Origin: Candidatus Omnitrophota bacterium | GTDB lineage: Bacteria > Omnitrophota > Gorgyraeia > Gygaellales > Profunditerraquicolaceae | Assembly (NCBI GenBank): GCA_049517335.1 | Contig: JBEKSD010000011.1 | Coordinates: forward strand, 1-64,000 | DNA: 64,000 nucleotides | Direction: 5' to 3' | In this document: positions 320-64,000 of the stretch, piece after piece | How the letters are laid out: each line of letters begins with the position of its first letter | Position numbering within the stretch: the stretch's first letter is position 1 | The notes under the pieces: model-generated | Database searches by the model: none | Told to the model about the DNA's origin: nothing | Seen by the model: the letters and a program-made list of their open reading frames with translations, nothing else | Program-made: the position numbers and the translations under genes

Positions 320-321
320 CT

Positions 322-681: not shown

Positions 682-704
682 GTCTTTGTAAGCCGGAGGA
701 GTAT

Positions 705-1097
705 ATGAATATACCCAAGATTATTATTGCAGATGATGAAGAAGGGTTGCGCCAAACTTTAAGTAAGTTTATTTCTGAAAGGCTCCATTGCGAGCTTTAT
801 GCGGCTTCCAACGGTTATGAGGCCTTGGCGCACGTGAAAGAGAAAGGCTGCGATCTTATGCTTCTTGATTATAAGATGCCCGGGATTTCAGGCTTAGAGG
901 TTTTGAAAGAAGCTAAGAAAATAGTTCCTGAGGCAATTGTCTTCGTGATCACGAAGTGGGATAGTCCCGAGGTTTCAAAAGAAATCCAAGACTTAGGTGC
1001 CGAATACATCCCCAAACCACTTGCTTTAAAGTTACTCATGGCGAAAATCCAGGAGAAACTTAAGGCTATCAACAAATACCATCCAATAGTGTTTTAA
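705..1097 (+). CDS. Single-domain response regulator (receiver)
   Basis: ADDE, LLDYKMPG, IPKP; RBS GGAGGAG. Confidence 0.9.
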   Translation: MNIPKIIIADDEEGLRQTLSKFISERLHCELYAASNGYEALAHVKEKGCDLMLLDYKMPGISGLEVLKEAKKIVPEAIVFVITKWDSPEVSKEIQDLGAEYIPKPLALKLLMAKIQEKLKAINKYHPIVF

Positions 1098-1114
1098 TCC
1101 TTACCTATATTATG

Positions 1115-1735: not shown

Positions 1736-1850
1736 TTATTGTATAAAGATGAAATATATGTTAAAAAATATTTGCTCATTTTATAGTATTATCTCATAAC
1801 ACTCTGTATGGCAAATAGTTATATCTATTTATCATATTTATCAGTAAACC

Positions 1851-1879
1851 TTGACAAATGATAAAGTGTGTGTTATACT
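1851..1879 (+). promoter_or_regulatory. Sigma70-type promoter
   Basis: TTGACA-17 bp-TATACT with TG extended -10. Confidence 0.8.
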
Positions 1880-1917
1880 TCTGCTGTAAGTTAAAAAAGG
1901 TACTTAAAGGAGCCAAA

Positions 1918-2322
1918 ATGGATCAAGCTAAATTAAAACTTTTAATTGTGGATGATGAGAAAGAAGTCTGCGAATATACCGCTTCTCATCTAAGACGTAA
2001 AGGCTACGATGCTTTGGTCGCAAATGCTCCGGAAGAAGCAATCACTGTTATTAAAGAACAGAATCCAGATCTAATGATTTTAGACATGAATTTGCCCGGG
2101 ATGAGTGGCACGGATTTATTAAAGGTAGTCAGGCAGTTTAATACTTCTGTAAAAGTTGTTATGATATCCGGCTACCCTTTAGATATTCAAAAGGATCCTC
2201 AATTCAGTGGCTTGAATATTTCAGAGTTTATGCAAAAACCTGTTCCTCTTAGCGCCCTTGACTCAATGTTGGCGAAAATAACAACCAAGGAGAAAGATGG
2301 ACATACACAAATTGATTCATGA
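1918..2322 (+). CDS. Single-domain response regulator (receiver)
   Basis: VDDE, ILDMNLPG, MQKP; ATG 1918 follows AAGGAG (the track start at 1858 lies inside the promoter). Confidence 0.9.
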   Translation: MDQAKLKLLIVDDEKEVCEYTASHLRRKGYDALVANAPEEAITVIKEQNPDLMILDMNLPGMSGTDLLKVVRQFNTSVKVVMISGYPLDIQKDPQFSGLNISEFMQKPVPLSALDSMLAKITTKEKDGHTQIDS

Positions 2323-2494
2323 TACATGCGAAGCTACAAGGCACCTTCCTTTTTTGATCGGATTAGCCGGTTCAATAAGGATTATGCCGAAACAGAATTC
2401 GCGCGAGCAAATTGGCGACCTGGGGGATGTACCAGGGGATAATATCTTGCCAAAAGAGATATTAAATTCCCTAATCTCTCGCAGGAGCCTCTAG
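2297..2494 (+). CDS. Small hypothetical protein
   Basis: 65-aa ORF with AAGGAG RBS, overlapping the previous gene; no motif recognised. Confidence 0.4.
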   Translation: MDIHKLIHDTCEATRHLPFLIGLAGSIRIMPKQNSREQIGDLGDVPGDNILPKEILNSLISRRSL

Positions 2495-2538
2495 GTCGCT
2501 TTAAATTTTTCTTTTGCCACGGAGAAAGGGAAGAAGCG

Positions 2539-2727
2539 ATGGTAAAAGTCAAATGCAAGATCTGTGGCGAAGAAGGTTACACCGCGGCGCCAAAAGTATT
2601 GAAGTGCGAATGCGGAGGAAGCTTTAGAGTGATTCGCGAGAAAAGAGAAGACAGGATCACAACGGTGGACCGCAGCATCTTAGATTTATTTAACTTCTCA
2701 AATCTTATAAATTATGGAAATAATTGA
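2539..2727 (+). CDS. Small zinc-ribbon-like protein
   Basis: CKICG...CECGG, 62 aa. Confidence 0.55.
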   Translation: MVKVKCKICGEEGYTAAPKVLKCECGGSFRVIREKREDRITTVDRSILDLFNFSNLINYGNN

Positions 2728-2905
2728 AGCCCTGATCAAAAAAGAAAACCATTCAAAAGAGGAATTCGACACTTTGGTTGTCCGGGTGAATTCGCATTAT
2801 ACCCGGCAATTAAGAAATACCACTGTGCCGCAGCACTGCGGCTTATGCAGCATATTCCGTTTTTGCAAGATTATTAACCATAAATTAATTTGCCCATGGA
2901 CTTAA
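2714..2905 (+). CDS. Small Cys-containing hypothetical protein
   Basis: CGLCSIFRFC...ICPW; overlaps the previous ORF. Confidence 0.45.
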   Translation: MEIIEALIKKENHSKEEFDTLVVRVNSHYTRQLRNTTVPQHCGLCSIFRFCKIINHKLICPWT

Positions 2906-2955
2906 AGTCAAAATCAGTTCCAATTATGAAAAAATGCAGTATAATAAAAGGCGAG

Positions 2956-3609
2956 ATGGAAGAAAAGCCTAAATTATTAGTTGTGGATGATGAAGTTGAT
3001 ATACGCGAATCTTTGGTTAATCATTTTTCGCGGCGCAACTTTATGGTTTCTGCCGCGAGTACCGGAGAGGAAGCGCTTAGATTAATTAAAGAGAATAAGC
3101 CTGATCTAGTTATTTTGGACATGAAGCTTGAGGGCAACCTAGAGGGCAAGGATGTCTTACGGATCCTTCGTGAAACTGATAAAGACACAAAAGTAGCCAT
3201 GGTCACAGGCGCAGTCCTGTCTGAACAAGAAATGCAGGATATAGCTGATTTAGGTATAGTAGATTTTGTACATAAGCCGGTAGATATTCATACGCTGGAA
3301 GTTCTTATAAAAAAAGTATTAGAGCGCAGTTATCCAAAGGCAGTCCGCTTTGAAGTAATAATGTCCAAGGAGCCGGGAGAAGATACTTCTTTAAGGCGCC
3401 TTGCTCATGATCTCTCAAATATTTCAAGCGATATCATCAATAAATGCGAACTTTACACCCTCGATGAAGAGGAAGGTTTAAATAAGAGCAAGAGTGAGAA
3501 AGAGCGCCTTGCCGAAACAACGGATATTTTAAAAGCTGTCTTGAAACATAAAGAGCGGCTTGTTGATATAGTGCAAAAATTATCTTCGCTTGCGAAGAAA
3601 GAAACATAG
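2956..3609 (+). CDS. Response regulator with C-terminal HisKA-like helical hairpin
   Basis: VDDE, ILDMKL, VHKP receiver, then LRRLAHDLSN (H-box-like); no ATPase domain; start may be 2890 or 2926. Confidence 0.8.
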   Translation: MEEKPKLLVVDDEVDIRESLVNHFSRRNFMVSAASTGEEALRLIKENKPDLVILDMKLEGNLEGKDVLRILRETDKDTKVAMVTGAVLSEQEMQDIADLGIVDFVHKPVDIHTLEVLIKKVLERSYPKAVRFEVIMSKEPGEDTSLRRLAHDLSNISSDIINKCELYTLDEEEGLNKSKSEKERLAETTDILKAVLKHKERLVDIVQKLSSLAKKET

Positions 3610-3665
3610 ATTTTTCTTGTTAAGCGGGAGGAGGACCTGCTTAACAATTATTCAAGAGTTACGGC

Positions 3666-3742
3666 ATTGCCACGGATTCCTTAAAATAAGGAATGTGCCG
3701 GACTGAAACGAAAGGTCTTGGGTCGGATCAGTTCGGTTTTTT
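3666..3742 (+). promoter_or_regulatory. Attenuator-like leader (ATTGCCACGGA motif plus terminator) before the giant gene
   Basis: GCCGGACTGA...TCAGTTCGGT plus T-tract; same motif and stem at 25991-26045. Confidence 0.55.
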
Positions 3743-3813
3743 ATTTGAGCAGTTCTTAAGAACTTTAACAAAGTCCAAAATCCTGCGAGAGTGAAAGAAA
3801 TGAGACTAAAAGG

Positions 3814-6800
3814 ATGTTGGACTGGCAGAAGCATACTAAATTAAGAATATTTATCAGGACAATCTGTATTGTCTTGATAGTTACATTCTTTTCTTATGAC
3901 CTAACCTGGGCAGGCGCAGGAGAGGTCTTCAGCAATAAGAACAAACGCGCCTCGCAAGATTCTCCTTCCGTTGAAATCCCCCAAGAACTCGGTGTAATCA
4001 AAGAATCCTATACCTCAAAATATAATCCACATAAACTGGTTATCCATATCCAGGACGCCCACGCTAATGTTGAGGCCCAGGAAAACGAAGCCAAGCTTAT
4101 TAAATACTTAAAGGATAAATATAATGTAAATCTGGTTTCAGTAGAGGGCGGGTTTGGCGATTTTGACGCAGAGTTCTTTAGGAGCTTCCCTAAGGATAAA
4201 AAAGTAAGGGACAAGATAGCCAGATATTTCCTTTCTAAGGCCTTTATCTCAGGTTCGGACTACCTGCTTATCACGGAAAAGAATCCCCCGGCAGTCTATG
4301 GCGCAGAGGACAGGGAATTATACACTGCCCATTTAAACACTTTTAAGGACAATCAGACTAGCGCGGATTCTCTAAATCGGTCGCTTAAGACCCTTGAGAG
4401 CGTTGTTTCCACCCTAAAAGACAGGTATTATTCCAAGGATTTAAAAGAGCTCGATGCTAAAATCAGCGATTTTAAGCAGGGCAGGATCTCTTTAGGGGAG
4501 TATTTGTCTTACCTTAATATAGCAGCCATTATAAACAACGCTGACTTATCAAAATTCCCCAACCTCTACAATCTTATTACTTCGCAGGAACTCGAGCACA
4601 AGATTAACTTCGAACAGGCTGAATCAGAACGCCAGGACCTGATTGATTCGCTTACCAAGGCGTTAAACAAGTCAGACCTTGAGGACTTGGTAAAAGTGAG
4701 TCTTGATTTTAAGGCAAACAAAATCACTCCTGCCGAATACTACACCTACCTTGAGAAATTAACCAAGGAAACAAGCATCCAGGTAAACAGCTACAACAAT
4801 CTCTTTACCTATATTAAGTATATAACGCTTTCCCAAAACCTGGATAATTCAAAGGTCTTTGACGAAATAGACAACTTTACGCAAAGCCTAAAAGACAGGT
4901 TAATGGTAACGGGCGTTCAAAAAGACATAGATAACCTTACCTATATTATACGCATCTTTGAAGGTTTAGCTGATATCAACCTCTCGCCTAAGGAATATGA
5001 GCATTTTAAGAATACCCGGGAAGAATTTAATCAGAGAAGGCTTGCCCAGTTGTTTAGAAGATATGTTGATTCAAGCTATCTTAAGTCTCTGCCAAACGAT
5101 GCCGAGATAGACTCTCTGGAGAAATTCTACTCCCTTGCCCATGACAGGGATAAGGCAATAGTTTCAAACTCGCTAAACAGATTAAACCGGGAATATTCCA
5201 CTAACGCCGTAATCATTGTTGCCGGCGGTTTCCATACCCAGGGACTTACCTCAATATTAAAGGAAAAAGACATTTCCTATGTTGTGGTTGCCCCAAGCAT
5301 CAAATCAGGCCAGGAGAAGGAAAACACTTATTTCGCCCTGCTTAAAGACAAGAAGCTTCCACTTTCGGATATCTTAAATGATCCCGATACCTTACAGATT
5401 ATAAACAGCATTTCTGACCCGGAAGCCCGGGAACTCTTGGTGAATTACTGGATTGCCAGGGCATCCAGATATTATTCGGTTAAAGAGCTACAGGCGCAGT
5501 TAGATAGATTGCGGTTATCTGAAGAAGATCAGAAAGCAGTAAGCCGTGCCTTAGAGGAAATCTCGCCTATTAATAAACCTGTCCAGCTAGAAGAAACAGT
5601 GCCTGCAACTATGTCAGAGCAAGAAGTCCCTGTAAAACAAGCTCCAGCTATCCAGCAAGGCCCAGGTTTGTTTGAAAGATTTGCTCAGCTAGTATCATCT
5701 ATGACAGGAAAGATAAAGAGCGTAGTAAATATCAAGAATATCTCTACAGGGATAGTTGCTGTAGCGCTCTATCTCTATTCTCCATTAGCTGCCTCTTCCT
5801 TTGATAAAGGAAGCGAGAATAAGATAGTATCTTTTGAGTTCAGTGCTGCACAAAAGAATATGATTAAAGAAGAGGTTTCCTATGTTTCTAGAAGGATGGT
5901 TCCCGAGATCTCGCAGCATAAGGTTGATGAGATAGTCAGCAATACTGTTCCTTTCAGAAAATACACACAGGAAGAGATACGCAGCTGGGTCAAAACAGCA
6001 AATAGGAATATGCTGCTTGCGCTGTCAGGTATCCCGGCATTCTTCGGATTTGCCTGCTTGTTAGAAATGGTGATATGGTATTTCTTTACCGGAGCATTCG
6101 ATCCATCCGTAGCGAAAGTATTTATCCAGCTTGGCACCTTTGGCCCGTTATTGTTTTACGCCGTGGGCGGCAGGCTTCTAAACCATTTCTCAGGCAAATC
6201 TTTATATCACTCTCAAACATTAGACTATCAGCACGGCGGTTCCGTTGAACCGGAATATAAAAAGATAGTTGTCGCCTTAAGAGAACACCTTTCAGATGAT
6301 TATCTTAAAGAAATAATCGCACATGAAACTACCCATTACCTTAGAAGCTACGGCAGATATATAAATGACGGCGAAGGCGCTTATCTTGCTAGCGCAGTTG
6401 GTTTCCTAAGGCTGCTTGAGCTGCAAGGTAATCCTGAAGAATTTCTCGCTGCCAACGCAAAGGACACCGCGGATAAAGCGGAAGAACTGGCAGCGGCTTT
6501 AAAATCAGGCACAATGCCGCAGGATACGCCGGGGATAGCTGATTTGATGGCTGAATACAAGTCAGGTCTTGAGAATTACAAATACGGCAAAGTTATAGGT
6601 TGCGTAGCCTATGGATTGTCTGTAAAAACAAATAATAAAGAAAATTCCTGGAAGTTTTTAAGATTCTTAGCCCAGGGAATCGATATTGCAGAAGCTTTTA
6701 ACGCGGTGCTCACTGGAGCAGAGATCAAGCCAAAGGCAGCCGGAAATTCCGGAAGGCTGTTAGAAAGATTAGCAAGCTTTGCCGCATCCTTAAAACCAAA

Positions 6801-9800
6801 AACCAAGGAAGCAAGGTTCATACCACAGGGAATAGCAGCAGGTAAACAGGAGCAAACAGTAATTGTTCCTGCGCCTGCAGCCCAAGAAAAGCCCGCTGCA
6901 ATAAAAGCAAAGCCTGAAATTAAAGCTAGTATTCCTCGCTTTACGATACCTAAGGTTAAGGTAAATTTACGGCCCTTCTTAACAGCGATAAGTGTTTTTA
7001 CGCTAAGTTTGTATTTTTCTACAACAGCTTTAGGTCAAGATAATTCTGCGTCTTCCAAGATATTCGCCTCATTTAGCGATGTATTTACTCATGGCGTTAC
7101 TATTTTCTTGGCGATAGCAGGTACAATTGGATATTTTGCCTACCGAATCGTTAAGAAGATCTCTTCGAAGGGAAATACTCCTGTTCAGGAAGTTGCTCCG
7201 GTTGTAATTGAGCCTGTCATAGTAACAGCTCTTGGTAGGCCTCAAGTTGCAAGGCCGGTGGCACGTATAATCAGCAACCCTCAAAGTATTCAGCCGAACC
7301 ATAATTTGCCCATTACCATGCGCCAGGAATTAGAAAATCGCATCCAGCAATTAAGCGGTTCCATTGCTCAGGGCTCAAAGGACGCTTTAGCCAGAAGTTT
7401 TAGGCCTGTCGGTCCTGCTGAGCTGCCCTTGCCAATGCCTGTGTCTATGCTTAATCAGGATGCTTCAGACAGAGACAAAGTCGTTCATATCCTAGAAAAT
7501 ATGCAGCGGATGATGGACGGCACTGATGAGAAGGTCTTGCGCGATTTTGAACGGGCTATTGATAACGCCAGGGATAGAGTTACAGAGCAGGCGCTGGATC
7601 AATACGAAGGACTTTCTGATGAGGCACTTTACCGGCTCTTAACGGATGGTTATATAGCAGAACTGGAAAGAGAATTCCAGCGTATTATTGAGAATCAAAT
7701 TCAGCACATGATTCGCTTCCATACTCCAAGTACGGAAGAGCAGGCTCTTTATGTTAGTGAAGAGATAAACGAAAAGTATTCTAGACTGCCTCGTTACTTA
7801 AAGTGGATTCTTACCAATAATCCGCAAATTGAGAATGATCCTTTGGTGCAGGAATGGATAAATACTATACAACGCCGCATGTCTCAGATACCTGCATTCC
7901 CTGAGATGATGACCGGATATTCCAAAGTTGCCTTAAATAAATCTCTATACCTAAATCCTGAAATAGCCAGGCGCGTGCTTTTATATCTGGCAAAAAAAGC
8001 CTCTCAAGATATAGAAGTAACCGAAGGCGATGTAAGAAGGGAAATCCAGGCAGAATTAGCCAGGAACTTGCCGGAAGATGTCATAGAGGGTCAGGTTGTC
8101 GTTCCAGAAGAAGAAAGCATCTCTGAACTGCCTCCGGCACCGCAAGCAAGAGCGTTGCCCGCTCCTAATATGGGAGAAGCAGAAAGCAAGAGGGCAAGGC
8201 TCAAAGCTTTGAGTGATGATTATAACCAATTCCTGGTTAAATTCAGAGAGCAGGAAGGAACAATTAATAAGGTTCAAACTGATCTTAGGGAATTAAGTGA
8301 AGGCCTGGAAGAGGCAAAAAGGCAAAACGATAGGATTGTTATTGAAGCCTTGCAGCCGGCAGTAGATGGATTAACCTCAAAACTTAGAAAAGTCAAAGAA
8401 AAGCTTGGCCGTCTTGAGCAGGAAAAAGCAAGATACGAGGAGCAGATTAATTCACTGCGCAGTGAATTAGGCGAAACCGGCGGAACAACCTTATACGCCT
8501 TGGATCCGCTTTCCATAGGAGTGGTTGCAGTATTTACGGTATTATTCGGGATCCCCCTTTATATCACCAAGAAAATTCTCAACAAATGGTTTAACACAAC
8601 GGCCGGTAAAACCTTGGGCATGACCGCGGCTATTGGTTCATTAGTTGCAGGTTATTATGCCTACCTTGTTAATTTGACCCCAAAGATTCAGGAGATCTTT
8701 ACCAATCCTAAAGAGGCAGACTGGCCGATCCTGGCAACCCTGCTTATCGCCTGGCCGGTTTCAATTGTTAGCGGAATTCTTGGCGGAAAAGTCGGCAAAG
8801 GGATTTCCCATGAAAGGCTGTATTGGAGAGCAAATTCCGAGTTTAAGAAAGGAAATACCGATGAGGCTATAAGTTTAATTAATCAAGCCATAAAACTAAA
8901 CTCTAAGAACGCGGTTGATTACAATCTTTTAGCTGAATGCCAAAGGAAGAAGAGGCGCTTTGATGACGCCGTAGCATCTTACAAAAAATCCCTGGAAATA
9001 ACGCCAGATAACAGCACCACCCATAATAATTTGGGCGTAGTTTATGTTGAAAAGGGCGATGATGTAAAAGCCATTGAAAGCTACAAGCGCTCACTTGAGC
9101 TTGATGCAAATGACCAGATAGTTTTGGCTAACTTAGGCAGATCCTTGCATAAAAAGGGACAATTGTTAGAGGCAGCAAGGGCATTTCAGCGTGCCCAGGA
9201 GATAAAACCAGATTCCTCAGTTACTGAAGAATTAAATGCGATTCTGCAGCAAACAGGAAACATTCCTAAATCCCAAAAACCGCAAGACTTGGAATACGCC
9301 AAGACATTGGGTGAATCCTTAAGAATAGAGAAAGAACGTGGTTGGATAGGGCAGCTTTCTTATGACGACAATTTGACTGCGGTCGCCTGGTTAGGCGCCG
9401 TGGTTGCTTGGATCTTAGGAGGCATATTCCTATATTACGTTCCTTACGGCCACCATTGGGAATTAGGCACATCTGACAAACCCGCTACTTTAGGATATGT
9501 AGTTTGGATTGGAGAAATTGTAGTTGCTCCGCTTTTGGGAGCTGGTTTAAGTGTCGCGGGTGTTTGGGTAAGTGAGAAGGTAACCAGCGTAGTAAAAACT
9601 GTCTACCGCTTCTTAACATTTCCGCTTACTTACCGGAAGCTACAAAAAGTTAATCTCTTGCTTTCGGATGAGCTCTCAGATAGAGACATAAGCAGCGTGG
9701 CCCCCATATACGCCCGTATGTCTAAGGAATACCTAGAGAAGATCTTTCGTTCTTGGATGGAAGCAGGACAAGAAGAAAAGATTGCCCGGCTATTCAAATT

Positions 9801-30647: not shown

Positions 30648-30740
30648 TTCGGCAACTGACTGCCTTATTCCGAATCTTACCGGAAGTTAGGCTCTATAGC
30701 TTTGCGCCCCATTCTTTCGAATGGTTTGCTATTATCGACT
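30648..30740 (-). ncRNA. c-di-GMP-I (GEMM-I) riboswitch, A20 variant
   Basis: Minus strand GATAATAGCAAACCATTCGAAAGAATGGGGCGCAAAGC...CCTAA...AAGGCAGTCAGTTGCCGA fits GEMM-I P2 (GAAA tetraloop), GCAAAG junction and P3. Confidence 0.9.
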
Positions 30741-31213: not shown

Positions 31214-31576
31214 ATGACACAGACTATTTTTCAGATTACTGGTGGTTATACAAAGATTCCCAACAGCATATTACGGGCAATCTACAGGTCACCCTTTAAT
31301 GGCACCGAGATCCGGGTTATTCTTTTTGTAATCAGAATGACCAGCGGCTGGCATAAGGAAAATAAGCTCCTTAGTTACGGCTACATCGCGAAAGAAGCAA
31401 ACCTTGATAAACGTAATGTCAGAAGGGCAATCAACATACTTATCCAGTCCAAGGTTATTATAAAAAGTAAAGACGGCCGTAAAAACAAACTCGCTATAAA
31501 TCACAATTATACAACCTGGCAGTTATGCACAGGTTGTAATATCGAAGGGGCTAAATTACCCCTACATAAGGGGTGA
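31214..31576 (+). CDS. Phage replication initiator O-like N-terminal domain (short or truncated)
   Basis: GGYTKIPNSIL...EIRVILFVIRMTSGWHK...SYGYIAKEANL; ends inside the iterons. Confidence 0.75.
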   Translation: MTQTIFQITGGYTKIPNSILRAIYRSPFNGTEIRVILFVIRMTSGWHKENKLLSYGYIAKEANLDKRNVRRAINILIQSKVIIKSKDGRKNKLAINHNYTTWQLCTGCNIEGAKLPLHKG

Positions 31577-31677
31577 ATTAGCCCCTATTTTTGGGGGCCA
31601 ACTAACCCCTGTAAAGAATTAAAGAAATAATTAAAGAAATAGTAGTAAAGAAATGTGGCTGTGAATTCTGTGGATAA
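31523..31677. repeat. Putative replication origin: three iterons, A-rich repeats, two DnaA boxes
   Basis: GGGG-N8-CCCCT at 31546, 31569, 31593; AAAGAAAT repeats; TTATGCACA 31523 and TGTGGATAA 31669. Confidence 0.7.
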
Positions 31678-31740
31678 GTCCAAAATCTGTTTTTTAAGAA
31701 TTACATTGTAAGACTAAATTTGTTAAGAGGAAATCTTAAA

Positions 31741-31983
31741 ATGGATTCGCATAAAATAAAGCAGAAAAAACGTGCTGGGAAAGTGATTCGAGCTTTTAAG
31801 GTCGAAATCTGTGATGCTAGCTCTAATCCTGAGCTGTATGCTAATCCAAGCAATCCCTACGCTCAATTGTCAGATGAGGAGAGGCTGAAAGATTTTGTTG
31901 AGGTTTTTGGTTTGCTTTGGGGAGAGTCATGCCGGGAAACCAGTAAAGACGTCTATGGAAATAAAAAAGATTGCAATAAGTAA
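31741..31983 (+). CDS. Hypothetical protein upstream of the recombinase
   Basis: ORF with GAGGA RBS; no motif recognised. Confidence 0.5.
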   Translation: MDSHKIKQKKRAGKVIRAFKVEICDASSNPELYANPSNPYAQLSDEERLKDFVEVFGLLWGESCRETSKDVYGNKKDCNK

Positions 31984-32024
31984 TATTAGTGATATAGTAT
32001 TACCCATACGAAAGTAGAGGGTAT

Positions 32025-33881
32025 ATGGATAATAAAGTTTCTTGGAAAAAAGTCACAACCGTTTATAGTTTTAAGGATTCAAAGACTGTCCGCGTTTTTG
32101 GTGTCGTCCGCGTATCGACAGATAAGCAGGCGCAGAAAATAGGCGAATCATTAGATCATCAGAAAGAAGTCCTTAAAAATTGGGTGAGGTCTAAATCAAG
32201 CCTGCACGCTCCCCAAGAATGGGGGCTTGTTGATATTTTTGTAGAAAATGAGGGTCCGGACGGCCAGAGAAAAGGACGGACTGCAACAAAGCGGGAAGGA
32301 AGAAGGGGATTAGCCAAAGCTCTTGAGCTTGCTAAATTAAAGCTTATTGACGTCGTTGTTGTAACAAAGCTGGATCGGATAGCTAGGAATGTAAGAGATT
32401 ACATAGACATATCAGCAGAATTCAATGAGAGCGGCGTGGCGCTTGTCTGTTTAGATCTTGACATTGATACTTCAACGCCTGATGGACAGATGATAATGCG
32501 TAATCACGCTAATCTTGCTCAATGGCAAGCGGAACGAATAGGGCAATATAGCATAGAAACCGTCCTAAGGCATCTTAACCAAGGGCGCCCGATAGGTCCA
32601 CCACCCATCGGTTACCGGATAAGCAAAGACTCTAATGGCAAGACTACTTATGAACCAGATCCTGCTTATAGGAAGCACGTTGAATTTATTGATCAACTAT
32701 ATTTGAGAGTGAAAAGTGTTGGAAAAGTTGTCGATATCTTACACCAAAAGGGATATAAATCTAAGCGTAACAAGACGTATTCAAAGCCTATGGTATCTCG
32801 TATTCTCCAGAATATCCGCTATATTGCAAAGCAAGAACATGATGGAAAAATTTATGCCGGGAATTGGGAACCATTAAGAAGTGAAGACGTTTATAAAACG
32901 ATTCAGGCTACTTTCAAGAGAAATAGGCTGAGTAATCACAGTCCAAATAGCTCAAATCATCACTACGTCTACCTTGCTAAAAGCCTACTTAAATGCAGCA
33001 GTTGCGGTTCAACCATGATCACAAGACCAGCTACCGGTAGAGGCGGGAAATATTATCCCTATTATATGTGTATGAAAGCATTTAAGACTAATGGCATTGA
33101 TTGCGAAGAAACCAATTATTTAGCATCAGAAGCTGTGGACGATGCGATTATTGAGATTTTACGGCATTTACATTTAAATCCTGATAATGTTGCTGAGATT
33201 ATAAAAAAAGCTAACCAGGCGACTGCATCAACGATAGGGATTTTGGAGGATGATTTGGATAGGGTCCAAGCAAGCTTAAAAGATGTCCGCACCAAAATTG
33301 CCAATTTAGTCGAGATACTCTCAGATAAGGGAATGGCAGGGATTGATGCAGTTAAGGAAAGGCTGGGAACCCTAAATCAAGACGAATCAGAGCTTGTCCT
33401 TGAAGAAAACAGACTGAAGTCAGAAGTTCAGGCAGAGAAGGTACAGGCTGGGACAGCTCATGAGTATATCAAGACATTACAGTTATTTGAAGATTACTAT
33501 GTGATGAATCAAAATAATAGGGAGCGTCTCCAGGCAATTCTTCCTAGAATAGTTAATTCAGTTATCTGTGAAATTAATGACAGGAAAAAGGGTATGGGCA
33601 AACTTAAGATTGGCTTATTCGGACGGCCTTTTAATAGAGGTCAGAACGCTGAGATATGGAATAAAACATTACAAAAAATAGCCGATGAGTGTTATAATAA
33701 TAAAGTTTTTGAAGAAGCTAATGGTAAGTTCGGAACAAAAGCTTATAAAGAGAGAAATCCTTCTTCAGGCGCAGGAGTTCTCGTTAATTCAGATAAACGG
33801 TATTATAATGTTTGTGGTTCGCAGAGGGTAACTTCTGTGACCCCAGTATCTCCTATCTCTATGTGGCACAATGAGTTATAA
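32025..33881 (+). CDS. Large serine recombinase (integrase)
   Basis: RVSTDKQ catalytic Ser, KLDRIARN, recombinase domain, zinc ribbon CSSCG...YYMC...C, coiled coil; 618 aa. Confidence 0.93.
   Translation: MDNKVSWKKVTTVYSFKDSKTVRVFGVVRVSTDKQAQKIGESLDHQKEVLKNWVRSKSSLHAPQEWGLVDIFVENEGPDGQRKGRTATKREGRRGLAKALELAKLKLIDVVVVTKLDRIARNVRDYIDISAEFNESGVALVCLDLDIDTSTPDGQMIMRNHANLAQWQAERIGQYSIETVLRHLNQGRPIGPPPIGYRISKDSNGKTTYEPDPAYRKHVEFIDQLYLRVKSVGKVVDILHQKGYKSKRNKTYSKPMVSRILQNIRYIAKQEHDGKIYAGNWEPLRSEDVYKTIQATFKRNRLSNHSPNSSNHHYVYLAKSLLKCSSCGSTMITRPATGRGGKYYPYYMCMKAFKTNGIDCEETNYLASEAVDDAIIEILRHLHLNPDNVAEIIKKANQATASTIGILEDDLDRVQASLKDVRTKIANLVEILSDKGMAGIDAVKERLGTLNQDESELVLEENRLKSEVQAEKVQAGTAHEYIKTLQLFEDYYVMNQNNRERLQAILPRIVNSVICEINDRKKGMGKLKIGLFGRPFNRGQNAEIWNKTLQKIADECYNNKVFEEANGKFGTKAYKERNPSSGAGVLVNSDKRYYNVCGSQRVTSVTPVSPISMWHNEL
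33816..33848 (+). repeat. Repeat site A (att-like), inside the LSR 3' end
   Basis: GGTTCGCAGAGG-GTAA-CTTCTGTGACC-CCAGTA; same ends and downstream context as sites B and C. Confidence 0.65.
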
Positions 33882-33887
33882 TAAGTA

Positions 33888-33945
33888 TCCGACGGAGAAA
33901 TCTGTCGGAGATTTTTTATGTAGCGATGTCCCTAGGAGTTAGGGC
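33888..33945 (+). terminator. Terminator followed by conserved GCGATGTCCCTAGGAGTTAGGG box
   Basis: TCCGACGGA-GAAA-TCTGTCGGA plus T-tract; box recurs at 43708 and 46499. Confidence 0.7.
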
Positions 33946-43570: not shown

Positions 43571-43732
43571 TGGTATAATTGACCTGTGTAAATTAAGAGA
43601 GGTTTCCCCTCGGCTTATACGAGAGGGACCCCAGTAATATCGTTCTCCTCGCATAACGGGAGAGTTTAAGGCCTATGATCGGAATACCGGTTATAGGCCT
43701 TTTTATCTAGCGAGTTCCCTAGGAGTTAGGGC
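43571..43732 (+). repeat. Repeat site B: -10 box, hairpin, CCAGTA, terminator, conserved box
   Basis: TGGTATAAT; 30-nt hairpin 43601-43630; terminator 43668-43704; near-identical to site C. Confidence 0.85.
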
Positions 43733-46098: not shown

Positions 46099-46341
46099 TA
46101 CAAGGAAGCAGCTTAATTAAACATATTAATTCAAGGAATAGTATCTGAACTAGCCAGCCAATTGAACAGCAGGGTAGTAAATTACCAATGTCCGGACAAA
46201 GATAGGCGGACAACCCTATCTCCTAATTACTCAAAGAGTTACGCGATTTTAAGCCAAAAATGACCGGACAAAACGGACGCATTTTCGAGCTTTTTTGTCC
46301 GTCACCAGGCCAGTAATGTGCCTCTCTAAAGCAGATAATTC

Positions 46342-46523
46342 TTGCTCTAATAGGGTAAGGGCTATATAATTGGTAGCTAGGAATTAAGAGAGGTTTCCCC
46401 TTGGCTCATACGAGAGGGACCCCAGTAATATCGTTCTCCTCATAGTATTGGATAGTTTAAGGCCTATGATCGCAGTAGCGGTTATAGGCCTTTTTATCTG
46501 GCGATGTCCCTAGGAGTTAGGGG
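46342..46523 (+). repeat. Repeat site C: promoter, hairpin, CCAGTA, terminator, conserved box
   Basis: TTGCTC-17-TATAAT; hairpin 46392-46421; terminator 46459-46495. Confidence 0.85.
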
Positions 46524-58103: not shown

Positions 58104-58263
58104 TCCAAAAATAAATCATTCTTTAATGGCAATGTCCGCCTCCCAAGGGCGGACATTCTGTATGCATTTATCTCTCAAATAGTTACATAATTCCAAGTCA
58201 AAAAATACCGGACAAATAAGACAAATACCACGAGCAAATAACCTCTCTAAATCCAGAATATTC

Positions 58264-58345
58264 TTGATATAGTGAGGTATTGCATATATAATTACCCCTG
58301 TAAATAGAGAGAGGTTTCTACTCGGCTCATAAGAGTGGGACCCCA
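58264..58345 (+). repeat. Repeat site D
   Basis: TTGATA-17-TATAAT; AGAGAGGTTTCTACTCGGCTCATAAGAGTGGGACCCCA. Confidence 0.8.
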
Positions 58346-58434
58346 ATTTTTTATAAAATTAATGGCTGAGAAATGAAAGAATATAAGGTCACTATTCGCA
58401 TTCCGCAATACAAGTACTAAATAATAAGGAAAGA

Positions 58435-58953
58435 ATGGAGCTGAAGCAGAAGATATTGCGCGAATTAAAAACGTACTGGGTAAATGTACTGTATATAACT
58501 TTATTTTTCAGTATTTTCACCGATTACCGCAGATTAATGCTGGCTCATTATCAGATTACCTATAAGAATTATGGGATCAGTTTGATTAAGGGGTTGGTGT
58601 TAGCCAAGGTGATCCTGGTGGCAGAGCATTTGCACCTCGGAAGGGGATTTGAAAATAAAGCTTTAGTCGTCCCGACCCTGTACAAATCGTTTCTGTTTAC
58701 TATTTGTGTTGCGATTTTAAGCGTAATAGAGGCTATGGTCCGCAATTTTTTAAAAGCAGAAAATTTTACCGGAGTGCCGGATATGTTTATAAGATGTTTC
58801 TCGTATGAATGGTTTGCCGGCATGCTGGTGGTATTCGCTGCTTTTATCCCGTTTTTTGCGATCAGGGAATTAGGAAGAGTGTTGGGAAGGGGAAAAATCA
58901 GTGAGCTATTTTTCCGTAAGGGGACAGACACCAAAACAAACCTTCCCGAGTAG
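58435..58953 (+). CDS. Membrane protein (4 TM), sole gene between sites D and E
   Basis: Hydrophobic helices; LVLAKVIL, FIPFFAIRELGRVLG. Confidence 0.75.
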   Translation: MELKQKILRELKTYWVNVLYITLFFSIFTDYRRLMLAHYQITYKNYGISLIKGLVLAKVILVAEHLHLGRGFENKALVVPTLYKSFLFTICVAILSVIEAMVRNFLKAENFTGVPDMFIRCFSYEWFAGMLVVFAAFIPFFAIRELGRVLGRGKISELFFRKGTDTKTNLPE

Positions 58954-58964
58954 AGTAAGAGCTA

Positions 58965-59043
58965 TATAATTGAATTGCTAGGCGTAAATAGCGAGAGGTT
59001 TTCCCTCAGCTCATGCAAGAGGGACCCCAGTAAATTCTCTCTC
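58965..59043 (+). repeat. Repeat site E
   Basis: TATAAT; GAGAGGTTTTCCCTCAGCTCATGCAAGAGGGACCCCAGTAAATTCTCTCTC. Confidence 0.8.
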
Positions 59044-59189: not shown

Positions 59190-59369
59190 GCGTATGGCTC
59201 ATGGGCAAAAGACATTGATTCTGTAGAAGAAGAAAATTTCTTGCAAAACATAAGAAAGTATACCTTTGCCGGGCGTCCTTTGGGAAGAGAGACATTTATA
59301 GAAAGGCTGGAAGAGAGACTCAACAGAAGGCTATGTGCACTGCCGGTAGGGAGGCCAAAGAAAGATTAA
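59190..59369 (+). pseudogene. C-terminal remnant of a REP-associated tyrosine transposase (RAYT-like)
   Basis: IRKYTFAGRPLGRETFIERLEERLNRRLCALPVGRPKK*; no intact N-terminus. Confidence 0.65.
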
Positions 59370-59418: not shown

Positions 59419-59520
59419 GTGGCTTAATATGCTTTACTCTGTATGACAGATATAATTTTTGCACCATGCGTATGAAATGCGATTTAAGAAAACAGACCCG
59501 CTGTCCCTGCTTATAAGAAT

Positions 59521-60591
59521 ATGACTATTAAAAAAGGAGACTCAAATAATTTTTATGCTGATATAAATACCCTGGCAAGGAAGCATAAAATTCCCAGCAG
59601 GGTGATGTTTGAGCTTACCTATAAGTGTAATTTTCGCTGCATCCACTGCTATGTAGCCCCTGATAAGCGGAAGAAGGAACTCACTACGGCGCAGGTCTTT
59701 TTAATACTTGACCAGTTAAAAACGGCTGGCTCTTTTCATATAGGCTTCACCGGCGGAGAGCCGCTCTTGCGCGAAGATATTTTTGATATCCTTGATTATG
59801 CTAAAAATTGTGGATTTAGAATAAGCATTCTTACCAACGGCTCCCTCATAAATAAAGACACCGCCAAAAGAATAGCGTCGCTGGGGACAAGCTTAAACCG
59901 CGTTGATATATCCGTTTTAGGCTCCACAAAGAAAACGTTTGAAAAAATAACAGGAAAAACTGGAAGTTTTGAACTCGTCATGAAGGCCGTAAAATCGCTT
60001 AAGAAAGAAGGGGTAGATGTTCAGATCAAGGCAACGCTCTTATCATTAAATAAAAATGAGTTTCTGGATATTAAAAAACTAGCCGAAAGGCAGAAATGTC
60101 TTTTCAGGTACGACCCGTCTGTAACTCGTAAAGCTGACGGGAGCAAATCTCCCTTGCGATATCAGGTAGAACTAAATAAAATGTGCAGAATAAAGGGGGT
60201 GTTTGCCGCCGATAGGACCGCTGTTAACGAAGACGTCTTCTCGGAACTGAAACCAAAGGCTGTAGGACGCAAGAAGTTATTTCATTGTGGCGCCGGACAG
60301 TCAGAGGTCACGATAAGCCCGTATGGCGAAATGAACTTCTGCCCGGAGATTCATTATCCAGGATATAATATTTTAAAGATTTCTTTTAATGACTGTTGGG
60401 GAAAGCTTAAAAAGCTGGTTAGGAAGATTGAAATACCCAAAAAATATCAGTGTAATACCTGCGCCTTGGCGGTTTTCTGTCATTGGTGTCCGGCCAGAGC
60501 ATGGTTATTGAAGAAAGATTTTTTCACCTGTGATGAAGAGTCAAAAAAAATGGCGCTTGCAGAGGCGGGATTTAACCACGGGATGCCTTAA
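59521..60591 (+). CDS. Radical SAM/SPASM peptide maturase
   Basis: CNFRCIHC, FTGGEP, CGAG...C, CNTC...CHWCP...C. Confidence 0.92.
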   Translation: MTIKKGDSNNFYADINTLARKHKIPSRVMFELTYKCNFRCIHCYVAPDKRKKELTTAQVFLILDQLKTAGSFHIGFTGGEPLLREDIFDILDYAKNCGFRISILTNGSLINKDTAKRIASLGTSLNRVDISVLGSTKKTFEKITGKTGSFELVMKAVKSLKKEGVDVQIKATLLSLNKNEFLDIKKLAERQKCLFRYDPSVTRKADGSKSPLRYQVELNKMCRIKGVFAADRTAVNEDVFSELKPKAVGRKKLFHCGAGQSEVTISPYGEMNFCPEIHYPGYNILKISFNDCWGKLKKLVRKIEIPKKYQCNTCALAVFCHWCPARAWLLKKDFFTCDEESKKMALAEAGFNHGMP

Positions 60592-61651
60592 TAGTCTCCT
60601 TAGTCAAATTACAGAAGTAATCGATCGGCTCTTCCAAACAACCCTTTTCTAGAATCGCTATTCCCGGGCACCATTGGCAGATCATCCTATCTTCGCATGA
60701 TCTGCACGTGCTTTCTGTTTTGAAACTCAAGCCGTGGACTTTTTTATTGAGTTTGTAAAAGCCGTCCTTAACCGTATGGCTTTTCTGCAATAAGTTATAA
60801 TTGAATGTCCGCAGGTATCCACAGATGATCATCTCCCCTTGAGGCGTAATCCAGAAGGAAGCGCCGCCGGCTTTGCACAAAAGCAGTTTATCATTTCTAG
60901 GTTTTCTGATGGGTTTGGCTATGTCTATCTTTCCTCCGGGTCGCGTTGATTCTTCGTCGTTAAAATAGCCATATTGTTTATTAACGAATACCGCTTTTTT
61001 CGGGTCAAGGCGCAGGGTGCAGGGGTGAGTATCGCCATTGAGGCGGGCAAAGATCATGGTGGACGGCCGGAAGGCAAGGCCGAGAGATTCGACCAGTTTT
61101 TTTATTTCGTCTATCTGTGAGATATTTTGTTTTGTAACCTGAATCTTTACCTTTACCGGGATACCGTTTTCCAATAATTTTTTTATGTTATGGATGTGTT
61201 TTTCAAATAGATTCATCCCTGTTATCTCTTTATATTTTTCGCGTGTTGCCGCGTTTAAGGTGGTCTCAATGCTGAAGGGAGGTGAAGATTTAAAAATTTC
61301 AAGGGTCGGTTTATTCATTGAAACAAGAGGAGAAAATATCGTTGTTATAAAACCAAGCTTTTTGGCGTAAAGATAAAGCTCATCAAAATCTTTCCGCATC
61401 ATGGGATCTCCGCCGGTAAAACAAAGCCATACAACCCCGCCAGATTTGCACTTATCCATTATTTTTTCCACCTGATTTGTTGACAAGTCTCTGGACGCGG
61501 AAATCCCGTTATTGTAACAATCAGTATAACAGTGTTCGCAGTGGAGAGGGCATTTGTGGGTAAGTTCTATCTGCGCCACAATCGGCTTATGTCCCGCCTC
61601 AGCATGCAGATTCCATGAAAAATCTTTATATTCTTGTGTCTTTATTGCCAT
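60572..61651 (-). CDS. Radical SAM/SPASM peptide maturase (paralog)
   Basis: CPLHCEHC, FTGGDP, CKAG...C, CRSC...CQWCP...C. Confidence 0.92.
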   Translation of the reverse strand: MAIKTQEYKDFSWNLHAEAGHKPIVAQIELTHKCPLHCEHCYTDCYNNGISASRDLSTNQVEKIMDKCKSGGVVWLCFTGGDPMMRKDFDELYLYAKKLGFITTIFSPLVSMNKPTLEIFKSSPPFSIETTLNAATREKYKEITGMNLFEKHIHNIKKLLENGIPVKVKIQVTKQNISQIDEIKKLVESLGLAFRPSTMIFARLNGDTHPCTLRLDPKKAVFVNKQYGYFNDEESTRPGGKIDIAKPIRKPRNDKLLLCKAGGASFWITPQGEMIICGYLRTFNYNLLQKSHTVKDGFYKLNKKVHGLSFKTESTCRSCEDRMICQWCPGIAILEKGCLEEPIDYFCNLTKETIKASRG

Positions 61652-61752
61652 TTAAATTAGGAACCATATCTCTTCTTCGTGTGATAGATTATATCACATA
61701 TCAGTAAATCCGTAATCTATTAATACTAATTTCCCCTTGACAAAAACACGCC

Positions 61753-61781
61753 TTGACAAGTTTGCTGTGGGGTAGTAAAAT
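61753..61781 (+). promoter_or_regulatory. Sigma70 promoter of the precursor peptide gene
   Basis: TTGACA-17 bp-TAAAAT. Confidence 0.7.
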
Positions 61782-61822
61782 TTACTCATACTTGGTCAGG
61801 CAGGTTTACAAAAGAGGAGAAT

Positions 61823-61969
61823 ATGAAAAAGGTAGGGAGAAGAAAGAAGAAATTACCGTGGAAAAGTATGAAGATTACAGGGATAAAACTCAATCCGGAC
61901 CAGGCGGTACTAAGCTGTTGCGTGATGTACTGTACCCCCATGGCCTCGGGCTTGACGTCGCACAGCTAG
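61823..61969 (+). CDS. Putative RiPP precursor peptide (48 aa; not in ORF track)
   Basis: MKKVGRRKKKLPWKSMKITGIKLNPDQAVLSCCVMYCTPMASGLTSHS; RBS AGAGGAGA; lies among rSAM genes near pqqD. Confidence 0.75.
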   Translation: MKKVGRRKKKLPWKSMKITGIKLNPDQAVLSCCVMYCTPMASGLTSHS

Positions 61970-62182
61970 CCCTTTTTGTTAATTTGCAGATTTGAAGACT
62001 TGGAATTTGGTCCGTGAAAATCTAAAGAGAAAAAACTAAAAGGGCACCGCCTGTTATCATAAAATACAGTGGCAAGGATGAACGCAAAAATTTTAAACGT
62101 TTTTTTTGAAGCGAAGAAAACAGATATCTTTTAAACAGCGATTTTACCTTTCTGCTGTAAATTTGTTTGTAATTATTCCGTT

Positions 62183-62445
62183 TCACTCCTGATAATAATA
62201 CCTGATTAATCCTCCGGGTTTTGATTGACGTTTTATCTGACCGGTGTTATTCACGGTGCATGTTCAAGCAATTGATTGTTTAAGGATGAATGTGGTCGTG
62301 TTGTATTGTAGTGTTTTCATATTGTTTGGGACATAAAAGGGGTTTTTGTACGCTAAATCCGTCATTTTTAAACAATTCATCGAACTTTCCCGAAAATTTT
62401 GTATCCCGGCCAGGGATTAATAACTTTTTAAGGGCTCTTCGGCCA
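62183..62445 (-). pseudogene. Degenerate IS transposase (integrase core) remnant
   Basis: Minus-strand fragments RDTKFSGKFDELFKNDG, YNTTRPHSSL and GQIKRQSKPGGLIRYYY with frameshifts. Confidence 0.55.
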
Positions 62446-62477
62446 TCAAGAAAGGTAGTATAGTAGAATTTAATAAA

Positions 62478-63458
62478 ATGAGTAATTCTAAGAATACGGG
62501 TAAGTTAAATATAAATAATAGAAGCATTGTTAGAAGTAAGAAAACTAACATGGAAATTGTACCCATACAATATGTCTTTAAAAGAAAATTTGAACGGCAA
62601 GAACAGATTAAAAAAGTAAAATACCATGCTGCGGGGTATTGTGTTCATGTGGGTAAACTTTCTCCGGGTTGCTATAGTTGTTTTGTGCCGGATCCACACA
62701 GGAAGAACTTTGTTTTCGGATCGCGTTGTGATGCAAATTGCGTTTATTGCACTTCGAGGAAAAAAGAAAAAGATTTAACGAGAACACAAATTCAACAAAT
62801 TAAATATAATGTGTTACGAGAGTCGACCTCTGTTGTGTTTAGTCCTTCGTCAATCAGTTTTAGCGGCGGAGGGGAACCGCTGTTATATCTTGACATTATA
62901 GATGAATTTATGGTTTTTTATCGCGGTTTGGAAAAGTATATGAGTAAAAAACCATGGTATTATCTTTATACGAACGGGATACTTGCTACTAATGATGTTC
63001 TTTTACGATTGAAAGATTTAGGTTTTGATGAAATAAGATTTCATCTCGGTGCCTCAAATTTTTCAAATCATGTATACGCCAAGATGAAAAAGGCTGTTCG
63101 TTATTTTAAGGCAATAACCGTTGAGACGCCCGCTTGGCCGTTACACAGGAAAAAACTTTTTGAAATGCTTCCCATTATTAAGGATATAGGAATCAAACAT
63201 CTCAACCTTGGTGAAATTGAAATAAACATATTTAACTACGACAGAATCGCGTCTGCGTTGCCTGATGGCAAGGTGTATCATGCCTTTGAGATGCATCTAT
63301 ATGACGGGGGGTTGACGTATGATATCATCGAAGAAATAATAAAGAAAAAGTATTCCTATTCCGTGCTTGACTGTAGCTGTTTTGTTAAGATGATGCAACG
63401 CGGGCATGCAAAGAATATTCGCCATTGCGATGTAACAGGATTGTGTGTTGAATACTAG
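62478..63458 (+). CDS. Radical SAM protein (COG2108-like)
   Basis: LSPGCYSC, CDANCVYC, SGGGEPL, YTNG, DEIRFH. Confidence 0.85.
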   Translation: MSNSKNTGKLNINNRSIVRSKKTNMEIVPIQYVFKRKFERQEQIKKVKYHAAGYCVHVGKLSPGCYSCFVPDPHRKNFVFGSRCDANCVYCTSRKKEKDLTRTQIQQIKYNVLRESTSVVFSPSSISFSGGGEPLLYLDIIDEFMVFYRGLEKYMSKKPWYYLYTNGILATNDVLLRLKDLGFDEIRFHLGASNFSNHVYAKMKKAVRYFKAITVETPAWPLHRKKLFEMLPIIKDIGIKHLNLGEIEINIFNYDRIASALPDGKVYHAFEMHLYDGGLTYDIIEEIIKKKYSYSVLDCSCFVKMMQRGHAKNIRHCDVTGLCVEY

Positions 63459-63725
63459 GGACAGCTAATATTCTAAGTCAATCGGCGAAAAAATTATAGC
63501 TGGTTTTTCTTTCAGTTTCAGTATAAATCTCCGGCCTCATCGGGGATTAAAAATGCTTTCACCGGTTGAATTTCTGAGGCAAAACGGATTGACAGTCAAA
63601 GCGTTAAATTCTAATATCAGCTTGTACAGAAAAAGGGGTACGGTCATAGAGACAGGAGGTTTCAATAGATGCAGTGAATATTTTTAAAAACGCGCTATAC
63701 AAGCTCGGGAAAGTGAGGTGTAAAG

Positions 63726-64000
63726 ATGGATGGAAAAAAAATGTTCATAAAGAACAACGACGTTGTGACAAGGGAGATTGAGGGCGAGGTTATTCTTATG
63801 CCCCTGCATAGTTCATCAAAGGATCTTAACTATATCTATACCCTTAATGATACAGCATCTTACGCATGGTCTCTTATGGACGGCAAGACGGCTTTGTCGG
63901 ATATAAAAGGCCGCATTATGGACAGGTATGAAGTGGATGAGGCAAAACTTGATAAAGAACTCGGTGAGCTTATAAAAGATCTGCGTTCTATTAAGGCGCT
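63726..64000 (+). CDS. PqqD-family RiPP recognition element (runs off the window)
   Basis: VVTREIEGEVILMP...IYTLNDTASYAWSLMDGK...YEVD; RBS GAGGTG. Confidence 0.88.
   Translation, partial: MDGKKMFIKNNDVVTREIEGEVILMPLHSSSKDLNYIYTLNDTASYAWSLMDGKTALSDIKGRIMDRYEVDEAKLDKELGELIKDLRSIKA

Follow-up and report, generated by a model that had tools for sequence, protein, structure and literature searches.

What is encoded by a 48-residue open reading frame (ORF) that lies among radical S-adenosylmethionine (radical SAM) genes near the end of a 64-kb stretch of DNA from a Candidatus Omnitrophota bacterium (contig JBEKSD010000011.1, positions 1 to 64,000; the window, by which we mean the whole stretch that was analysed)? 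An earlier sequence-only reading had proposed that this ORF is the unannotated precursor of a new family of Cys-crosslinked, ribosomally made peptides with post-translational modifications (RiPPs) that is carried as cassette cargo. We find that the window most likely contains the first half of the precursor's gene cluster, and that the system is common in uncultured Omnitrophota bacteria. On balance we lean towards a product that would be stapled through its Cys residues under the guidance of a RiPP recognition element (RRE) and phosphorylated on its terminal Ser, by way of three SPASM radical SAM paralogs and a kinase. The five ORFs that the sequence-only reading had described are all present in the window where it had placed them, and the features of the cluster are as follows:

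59521–60591, + strand: rSAM1, a SPASM radical SAM protein of paralog clade A (356 aa; no NCBIfam cut-off reached)
60572–61651, − strand: rSAM2, a SPASM radical SAM protein of paralog clade C (359 aa; its orientation is opposite to that of the other cluster genes, likewise in the related loci L001 and L058)
61753–61781, + strand: candidate sigma70-like promoter, TTGACA-17-TAAAAT, between the divergently oriented rSAM2 and precursor genes (score 11/12)
61812–61819, + strand: ribosome-binding-site-like sequence AAGAGGAG, which ends 3 nt upstream of the precursor ATG
61823–61969, + strand: precursor ORF (48 aa, three Cys)
61823–61912, + strand: predicted precursor leader, residues 1–30 (basic stretch, W13-to-I18 element, KLNP(E/D)QAVL)
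61913–61969, + strand: predicted precursor core, residues 31–48 (Cys32, Cys33, Cys37 and C-terminal Ser48)
62478–63458, + strand: rSAM3, an accessory radical SAM protein (326 aa; Pfam Radical_SAM 37 bits, no SPASM)
63726–64000, + strand: stand-alone PqqD/RRE protein (PF05402, 49.4 bits against a cut-off of 23.4; the window ends a few residues before the stop codon)

Because a profile of the precursor family scores the 48-aa ORF at an E value of 1e-18 (the profile includes the window peptide) and finds no second match anywhere in the 64 kb, and because codons 22–33 differ between the window and L001 by five synonymous changes and one conservative change, the ORF is more than a chance reading frame. 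It had also been credited with its own promoter and ribosome-binding site. In support of this, TTGACA-17-TAAAAT is the best of 16 promoter-like sites (11 of 12 positions), the TTGACA −35 hexamer is retained upstream of the precursor in L001, and AAGAGGAG stands beside the ATG; promoter-like sites as a whole, however, are no commoner than chance (16, against 12.1 ± 3.8 in shuffled sequences).

A word-indexed search with the single window peptide gave no match. With phmmer the same peptide recovered 28 proteins, 26 of which are short peptides that share its leader, and a search with a profile of 57 sequences recovered 1,067 clusters, the 120 listed being all unnamed or "hypothetical". (Two sequences were excluded before counting, namely P0102, a 1,077-aa repeat protein, and P0103, two fused copies.) The ESM Atlas returned only unnamed clusters for the window peptide, at 0.88, which we treat as a lead only, and neither Pfam nor NCBIfam gave a credible match for 27 precursors or holds a fitting model. 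The family leader consists of a basic stretch, an aromatic-x-x-P-x-I element and a terminal KLNP(E/D)QAVL; in the window's class, Met or Phe takes the place of Pro in the element, which runs from W13 to I18 in the window peptide. We take this element to resemble the YxxPxL motif by which RREs recognize lasso peptide leaders. The window leader departs from near-fixed family residues at two positions (R/K to G20 and E to D26). A 57-aa ORF with an SCC motif at 62290–62463 was considered as a second precursor and rejected, having neither the leader nor a match to the profile.

A single genome scan with an alignment of rSAM2 yielded 65 loci, comprising 62 family loci, 41 of which are Omnitrophota by NCBI phylum, and three outliers at 23–27% (L063–L065) that were kept as controls; removal of L061, a duplicate of L018, left 61 family loci. 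(Note that the hidden Markov models for neighbouring genes were built from these same loci, and the counts that follow are therefore co-occurrences rather than independent detections.) The precursor was found in 51 of the 61 loci, in 34 of the 35 that span at least 15 kb and in none of the three outliers, and the ten loci that lack it hold only 1.7–15.3 kb. The sequence-only reading had suggested looking for KL.P(D/E)QAVL-type peptides near radical SAM and PqqD genes, and since the precursor adjoins SPASM relatives in so many loci, the objection which that reading had raised against itself, namely that the ORF might not be conserved beside homologous enzymes, falls away. The stand-alone PqqD is present in 46 of 61 loci (30 of 35 long ones). 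A conserved leader, a variable core, and modifying enzymes and an RRE encoded alongside are expected of an RRE-dependent RiPP, and all are found here. By these sequence-based measures the 48-aa ORF is a RiPP precursor, as had been proposed, and belongs to a large, unnamed family of Cys-containing peptides tied to SPASM enzymes and PqqD/RRE proteins.

Several precursor copies are present in 16 of the 51 loci. L003 has six copies whose leaders agree and whose cores differ (168–7978). In L001 there is a duplicate in tandem whose leader is frameshifted by 1 nt, either real or an assembly error (9317–9486), and a divergent copy with one Cys and a terminal Gly beside a second set of PqqD, kinase and S24/S26 peptidase genes (2843–2998).

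The cores are hypervariable and start in one of three ways, with CC, CxC or a single Cys. At least three Cys are present in 197 of 200 cores, and 99 of the 200 have an odd number. The last residue, by contrast with that of other ORFs, is nearly invariant: of 141 database peptides, 131 have Ser in last place and 6 have Thr (137 together, as against 11.6% of 998 other ORFs), and Ser or Thr is also last in 72 of 78 peptides from the genome loci (a set that overlaps the 141). Thus, the three Cys of the window core had been described correctly, but the sequence-only reading had overlooked both the almost fixed Ser at the C terminus and its accompanying kinase module.

That module becomes apparent in L001, a syntenic relative that shares 81.7% DNA identity with the window over 59516–61921, then a divergent core, a conserved 3′ flank and finally PqqD at 87.7% (86% identical as protein; rSAM1 is 82% identical to its L001 ortholog). 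In L001, as in L058, a gene for a kinase of the HPrK/PEPCK fold follows PqqD, and in L001 the clade B SPASM gene comes next, so the cluster runs on past the window, as had been anticipated. The kinase is encoded in 53 of 61 loci and in all 35 long ones. Its His, Walker A Lys and D-D/E residues are present in 51 of 51 sequences (43 with DD, 8 with DE), and its fold is matched by PEPCK (Z 13.2, rmsd 4.8, 243 residues aligned) and by HPrK (Z 10.1–10.3, rmsd 2.6–3.1, 120–127 aligned), both well above unrelated rows; when the kinase profile was searched against PDB sequences, only P-loop matches came back.

The convergent layout of the window is a local inversion; among 51 loci, only L001 and L058 have the precursor opposite a clade C gene. 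The third radical SAM protein had rightly been called non-SPASM, as Pfam confirms. rSAM3 lies on an AT-richer block (approximately 62015–63680, GC 0.36 against 0.42) that is missing from L001, and is thus an accessory insert; it was found in 5 of 61 loci and in the ESM Atlas matches only unnamed radical SAM clusters. The stand-alone PqqD/RRE protein had likewise been identified correctly.

The description of rSAM1 and rSAM2 as convergent SPASM paralogs also holds. Their genes overlap by 20 nt, the proteins are 29% identical (98/341), and both have the seven-Cys tail C-x17-C-x36/38-C-x2-C-x5-C-x2-C-x13/18-C. In rSAM1 the CxxxCxxC motif is at Cys36/40/43 and the SPASM Cys are at 256, 274, 311, 314, 320, 323 and 337; in rSAM2 the motif is at Cys34/38/41, followed by an extra conserved Cys45, and the SPASM Cys are at 259, 277, 316, 319, 325, 328 and 347. 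The Pfam SPASM model scores rSAM1 below threshold (14.5 against 21.5 bits) and gives no match for rSAM2. A predicted structure of rSAM2 (pLDDT 88.9) matches SuiB, SkfB and anSME (Z 23–24.6, approximately 270–310 residues, rmsd 3.1–3.7), matches that support a SPASM identity and cannot tell the chemistry. Both proteins thereby show what is expected of a sactipeptide enzyme, a SPASM/twitch radical SAM protein with an intact CxxxCxxC motif and ligands for auxiliary clusters. A plasmid search with rSAM2 gave distant matches only (the best at approximately 25%).

Although two SPASM enzymes had been seen in the window, the core system comprises three. The SPASM proteins fall into clades A, B and C (support of 99, 100 and 99 for the Omnitrophota-type clades in a tree of 77 of the 155 sequences), all three of which occur together in 36 of 60 loci, with clade B outside the window. 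(L007, which has no full-length SPASM protein, stands outside the tree.) The precursor class follows the sub-branches of the enzymes; because kin share class labels, we claim no co-evolution. In the single-Cys-class loci L040, L042, L049, L050, L055 and L057, two of the three paralogs have a reduced or degenerate SPASM Cys consensus.

As to which bond the enzymes might form, we used six active-site proximity positions from Precord 2023 (PMC10288494), mapped here by motif. These read Y-T-L-S-P-E in rSAM1 and Y-T-F-T-G-Y in rSAM2, Y-T-I-S-K-L in StsB and F-F-T-S-H-Q in CteB; positions 1–4, read from alignments, are Y-T-F-S in SkfB and S-S-I-S in PqqE. Positions 1, 2 and 4 are nearly uniform over all clades, and positions 1–4 appear to lean to the sactisynthases. 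The seven-Cys SPASM layout of the window enzymes equals that of the thioether former CrpC, where, it has been proposed, it keeps an iron available to a Cys of the substrate (PMC13692751).

We consider the following pathway. PqqD would bind the leader and present the core, and the SPASM enzymes, whose seven-Cys SPASM domain would keep one iron of auxiliary cluster I open to a thiol of the substrate, would install Cys thioether rings. With three enzymes and a minimum of three Cys, a division of labour suggests itself, perhaps (and this is speculation) one enzyme per Cys. The kinase, predicted to be encoded just past position 64000, would phosphorylate the C-terminal Ser as PadeK and PsmK do, and the nucleotidyltransferase NTP_transf_5, where present (26 of 61 loci; 20 of 35 long ones), would add a sugar to the Ser phosphate as PsmN does, so that the Ser may perhaps carry a sugar-phosphate. 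The S24/S26 peptidase (33 of 61; 24 of 35) would cut off the leader and the ABC exporter (27 of 61; 18 of 35) would export the product. Arginase-like, B12 radical SAM and U32 proteins, methyltransferases and rSAM3 would serve as optional tailoring enzymes. Since kinase and terminal Ser occur together, phosphorylation of that Ser is the best-supported modification, and by analogy with the lasso kinases we regard it as likely. That Cys thioethers of one kind or another are installed we regard as somewhat probable; S-C-alpha links would be more likely than S-C-beta or S-C-gamma links, because no acceptor residue is conserved.

Among these neighbours, the arginase-like protein (L018 3855–5390 and relatives in 22 of 61 loci, 11 of the 35 long ones) is fused to tetratricopeptide repeats (TPR) and scores 40.3 bits with the FlmR/OhkR model, which has a cut-off of 350. 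Lys or Arg at Cys+6, found in 35 of 48 CC-class cores and absent from the window core, would fit a conversion of Arg to ornithine by this protein. B12 radical SAM proteins occur in 10 of 61 loci and U32 proteins in 9. Pairs of U32-type (UbiU-like) proteins with unnamed partners are found in the clusters of L016, L017, L019, L023, L025, L043, L045 and L046, and it is possible that they are anaerobic hydroxylases acting on the peptide.

The tail of the pathway is modelled on lasso peptides. Kinases of lasso clusters have a His-Lys-Asp-Asp motif and phosphorylate the conserved C-terminal Ser of the precursor (PMC9266682), and PsmN, a nucleotidyltransferase of uncharacterised type, is required for the hexose on the Ser phosphate of pseudomycoidin (PMC6993621). 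The family resembles paeninodin (PadeK) and pseudomycoidin (PsmK, PsmN) in its stand-alone PqqD/B1 protein, its HPrK-type kinase with His-Lys-Asp-Asp (in the relatives rather than the window), its C-terminal Ser, its nucleotidyltransferase of uncharacterised type and its ABC exporter. It differs in having SPASM enzymes, Cys-rich cores and an S24/S26 peptidase instead, and neither a lasso cyclase nor a B2 protease was found among the 29 recurring neighbour families that were annotated (families in fewer than three loci are mostly unannotated).

The sactipeptides StsA/BlaA, sporulation killing factor and subtilosin, for their part, share several traits with the family: their SPASM/twitch enzymes belong to the MftC/PqqE-like branch, an RRE is present, the cores are Gly-rich with N-proximal Cys, and positions 1–4 read Y-T-(I/F/L)-(S/T). 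The family is set apart from them by its scores with the StsB (103/625 bits), AlbA (74.5/850) and SkfB (52/300) models, by positions 5–6, by the absence of a CxCxC or GxGxG hairpin motif, and by its three paralogs and kinase. The system would work like a sactipeptide pathway joined to a paeninodin/pseudomycoidin tail module, but by the tests run is a member of neither.

A number of observations weigh against the proposed pathway. The kinase, the clade B enzyme, the nucleotidyltransferase and the peptidase are all encoded outside the window, the window's own genome is not among the 65 loci, and the nucleotidyltransferase and peptidase occur in only part of the loci. The likeness of the kinase and transferase to PadeK, PsmK and PsmN is one of motif, type and gene company, and the L001 kinase beside PqqD has D-E rather than D-D. 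A plasmid search with the kinase gave three weak matches only, of which the best, a distant one on Butyrivibrio plasmid NZ_CP146964.1 (L066, 8992–12266), has PqqD, S24/S26, ABC, nucleotidyltransferase and Pss glycosyltransferase genes as neighbours, with no radical SAM gene annotated in the stretch. A Cys-rich 57-aa peptide encoded there ends in Trp, not Ser, so the kinase module and the terminal Ser are not always coupled. On the side of the enzymes, the best NCBIfam scores of rSAM1/rSAM2 are to NirJ2 (129.8/500), AhbD (128.7/500) and MftC (128.2/265), which are not thioether formers, and every NCBIfam cut-off is missed; some paralogs from outside the Omnitrophota have a reduced SPASM Cys set; and positions 5–6 (P-E and G-Y, mapped by motif) are unlike the K-L of StsB.

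It is conceivable, if doubtful, that the SPASM enzymes perform other radical chemistry, such as decarboxylation, and that the Cys form disulfides or bind metal. Those best matches at 128–130 bits would fit this, three paralogs could run three different reactions, a fixed terminal residue is a requirement of decarboxylases, and Tyr directly follows CxC in 113 of 140 cores. However, a kinase in all the long loci explains the terminal Ser more simply, the odd Cys count of about half the cores does not suit the idea, and the window's core class has no conserved aromatic residue. MftC, moreover, requires a C-terminal Val-Tyr, whereas this precursor ends in Ser, and StsB provides a case in which a sactisynthase is hidden behind overall similarity to MftC.

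The system might instead be real while the window copy is decaying or is a minor precursor, with the working substrate encoded beyond the window. The two departures in the leader, the short core (one of the two shortest among 48 CC-class cores), the short spacing of the ribosome-binding site, the multiple precursors of many loci and the frameshifted and divergent copies in L001 are in keeping with this. We think it rather unlikely, because similar short CC-V cores recur (P0104, P0114 and L001) and the terminal Ser is retained, as are the open frame, the promoter box and the three Cys; the changes within the motif are also rich in synonymous ones.

Less probable still is a ranthipeptide of the PapB type, with S-C-beta or S-C-gamma links from Cys to Asp, Asn or Glu four residues downstream. 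Asp or Asn does stand at Cys1+4 in approximately 52% of the CxC class (26% each), and the ranthisynthase CrpC has a seven-Cys SPASM domain too, but Asp, Glu and Asn are absent from the window core, an enrichment screen revealed no acidic acceptor residue in any core class, Gly at Cys2+4 (99 of 140 CxC cores) can be linked at C-alpha only, the PapB model gives 67.9 bits against a cut-off of 340, and the F-F-T-S of CteB differs. That rSAM1 and rSAM2 serve as heme d1/siroheme (NirJ/Ahb) or cofactor (pyrroloquinoline quinone (PQQ), mycofactocin) enzymes beside an incidental ORF is scarcely credible despite the order of the NCBIfam matches, since scores reach 85–130 bits against cut-offs of 265–650, the curated cut-offs of NirJ, AhbC, AhbD and PqqE are all missed, the 29 annotated families include none for heme, PQQ or mycofactocin, and the linkage to the precursor contradicts it.

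How new is a family of this kind, with its proposed phosphorylated, Cys-stapled product? In the literature searched (subscription papers and bioRxiv supplements were outside its reach) we found no description of a KLNP(E/D)QAVL family, and PMC5067487 and PMC7470986 contributed nothing specific to it. In the available part of the Precord 2023 spreadsheet, however, two singleton rows labelled "Other Uncharacterized" are, compared by eye, identical to the L029 and L047 peptides. The claim of a new family thus stands in that the family is unnamed and undescribed in the literature searched, and gives way in that two members had already been recorded. The KLNPEQAVL peptides are left ungrouped there, and the available text does not discuss the trio of enzymes, the kinase or the terminal Ser. 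Group 6 of that paper (13 rows) is similar by eye in its W-x-x-P-x-L leader and its (P/A)EE-x-V-L-type motif before the first Cys, as well as in having three radical SAM proteins in 8 of 13 rows and a Ser/Thr end in 13 of 13; it differs in that the window family has a shorter leader and CC or CxC at the start of the core. Sactisynthases are predicted there for six uncharacterised groups, of which group 6, judging by its label, is presumably one. The SynChlorMet cassette (TIGR04248–TIGR04251: ScmC, ScmD, ScmE and ScmF) is also similar, with several SPASM enzymes, PqqD and an ScmC protein, and ScmC is the best or only NCBIfam match of two of the four kinases scanned and the second match of a third. 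All of its cut-offs are missed (ScmE 93.9/400, ScmF 82.3/400, ScmD 16.8/100, ScmC 23.7/125), none of 17 further SPASM paralogs has an Scm match at E ≤ 1e-26, and the name had no match in the literature searched. We know of no chemistry for SynChlorMet.

Upstream of the cluster, the window contains the following:

31214–33881: a fragment resembling phage replication protein O, and a large serine recombinase, after which come approximately 25 kb of mixed accessory genes
43577–43731, 46332–46522, 58254–58359 and 58932–59043, with a partial copy at 33820–33944: a dispersed intergenic repeat
59190–59366: the C-terminal remains of a transposase (59% identity across 59 aa with an ORF that is intact in L039)

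The region from 31214–33881 onward is probably a genomic island. The transposase family, presumably that of the REP-associated tyrosine transposases, also occurs near precursors in L011 and L016. The repeat is up to 141 nt long (89% identity between the two best copies), has TATAAT upstream and forms strong hairpins (z −3.4), and the serine recombinase gene also carries the repeat core, GACCCCAG, at its 3′ end; the repeat has no Rfam match in 43400–64000 and no copy in the 65 loci, and the copies may be scars of recombination sites or a small RNA. Given the serine recombinase, phage fragment, repeat and transposase remnant upstream, it is plausible that the cluster lies on an island in this genome. 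In L001, by contrast, the same cluster is 45 nt from genes that we take to be housekeeping genes. Thus, the notion of cassette cargo has some basis here, but no integron feature was seen, relatives adjoin housekeeping-looking or exopolysaccharide genes, and it is not a trait of the family.

Other features of the window lie farther upstream. A c-di-GMP-I riboswitch (30648–30740, − strand, 75.1 bits) is present at the start of a response regulator gene. The region 3814–28697 contains giant ORFs of 2,408 aa (TPR) and 4,403 aa (coiled coil, M28 peptidase), along with ORFs of 421 aa and 901 aa that have no Pfam match and N-terminal halves that look alike.

Exopolysaccharide genes bear on what the product might do, since Wza or Wzc is encoded in about a fifth of the loci (Wzc in 12 of 61 and 10 of 35 long ones; Wza in 11 and 9). 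One tentative reading, which we hold to be unlikely, is that the three SPASM paralogs, each acting on one Cys or all working in a single complex, staple the hypervariable core and that the phospho-Ser is joined to sugar or to Wza/Wzc exopolysaccharide, giving a diversifying, surface-displayed peptide–glycan conjugate, a tag for recognition or attachment, rather than a released antibiotic. If that were true, such an anchor would also account for the so far unexplained tail module in lasso clusters.

Taken with the more modest proposal of a Cys-stapled, Ser-phosphorylated peptide, the analysis brings to light a family of precursors, with over a thousand clusters, for which there is no Pfam or NCBIfam model and no match in the literature searched. 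The family appears to combine crosslinking by a conserved radical SAM trio with a lasso-type phospho-Ser or phosphoglycan tail. If this is true, the tail is a portable module that is independent of the lasso fold, and its biological role becomes testable. The enzymes would accept highly variable cores, which would make them useful for peptide engineering, and the mostly uncultured Omnitrophota would have here a main system for specialised metabolites.

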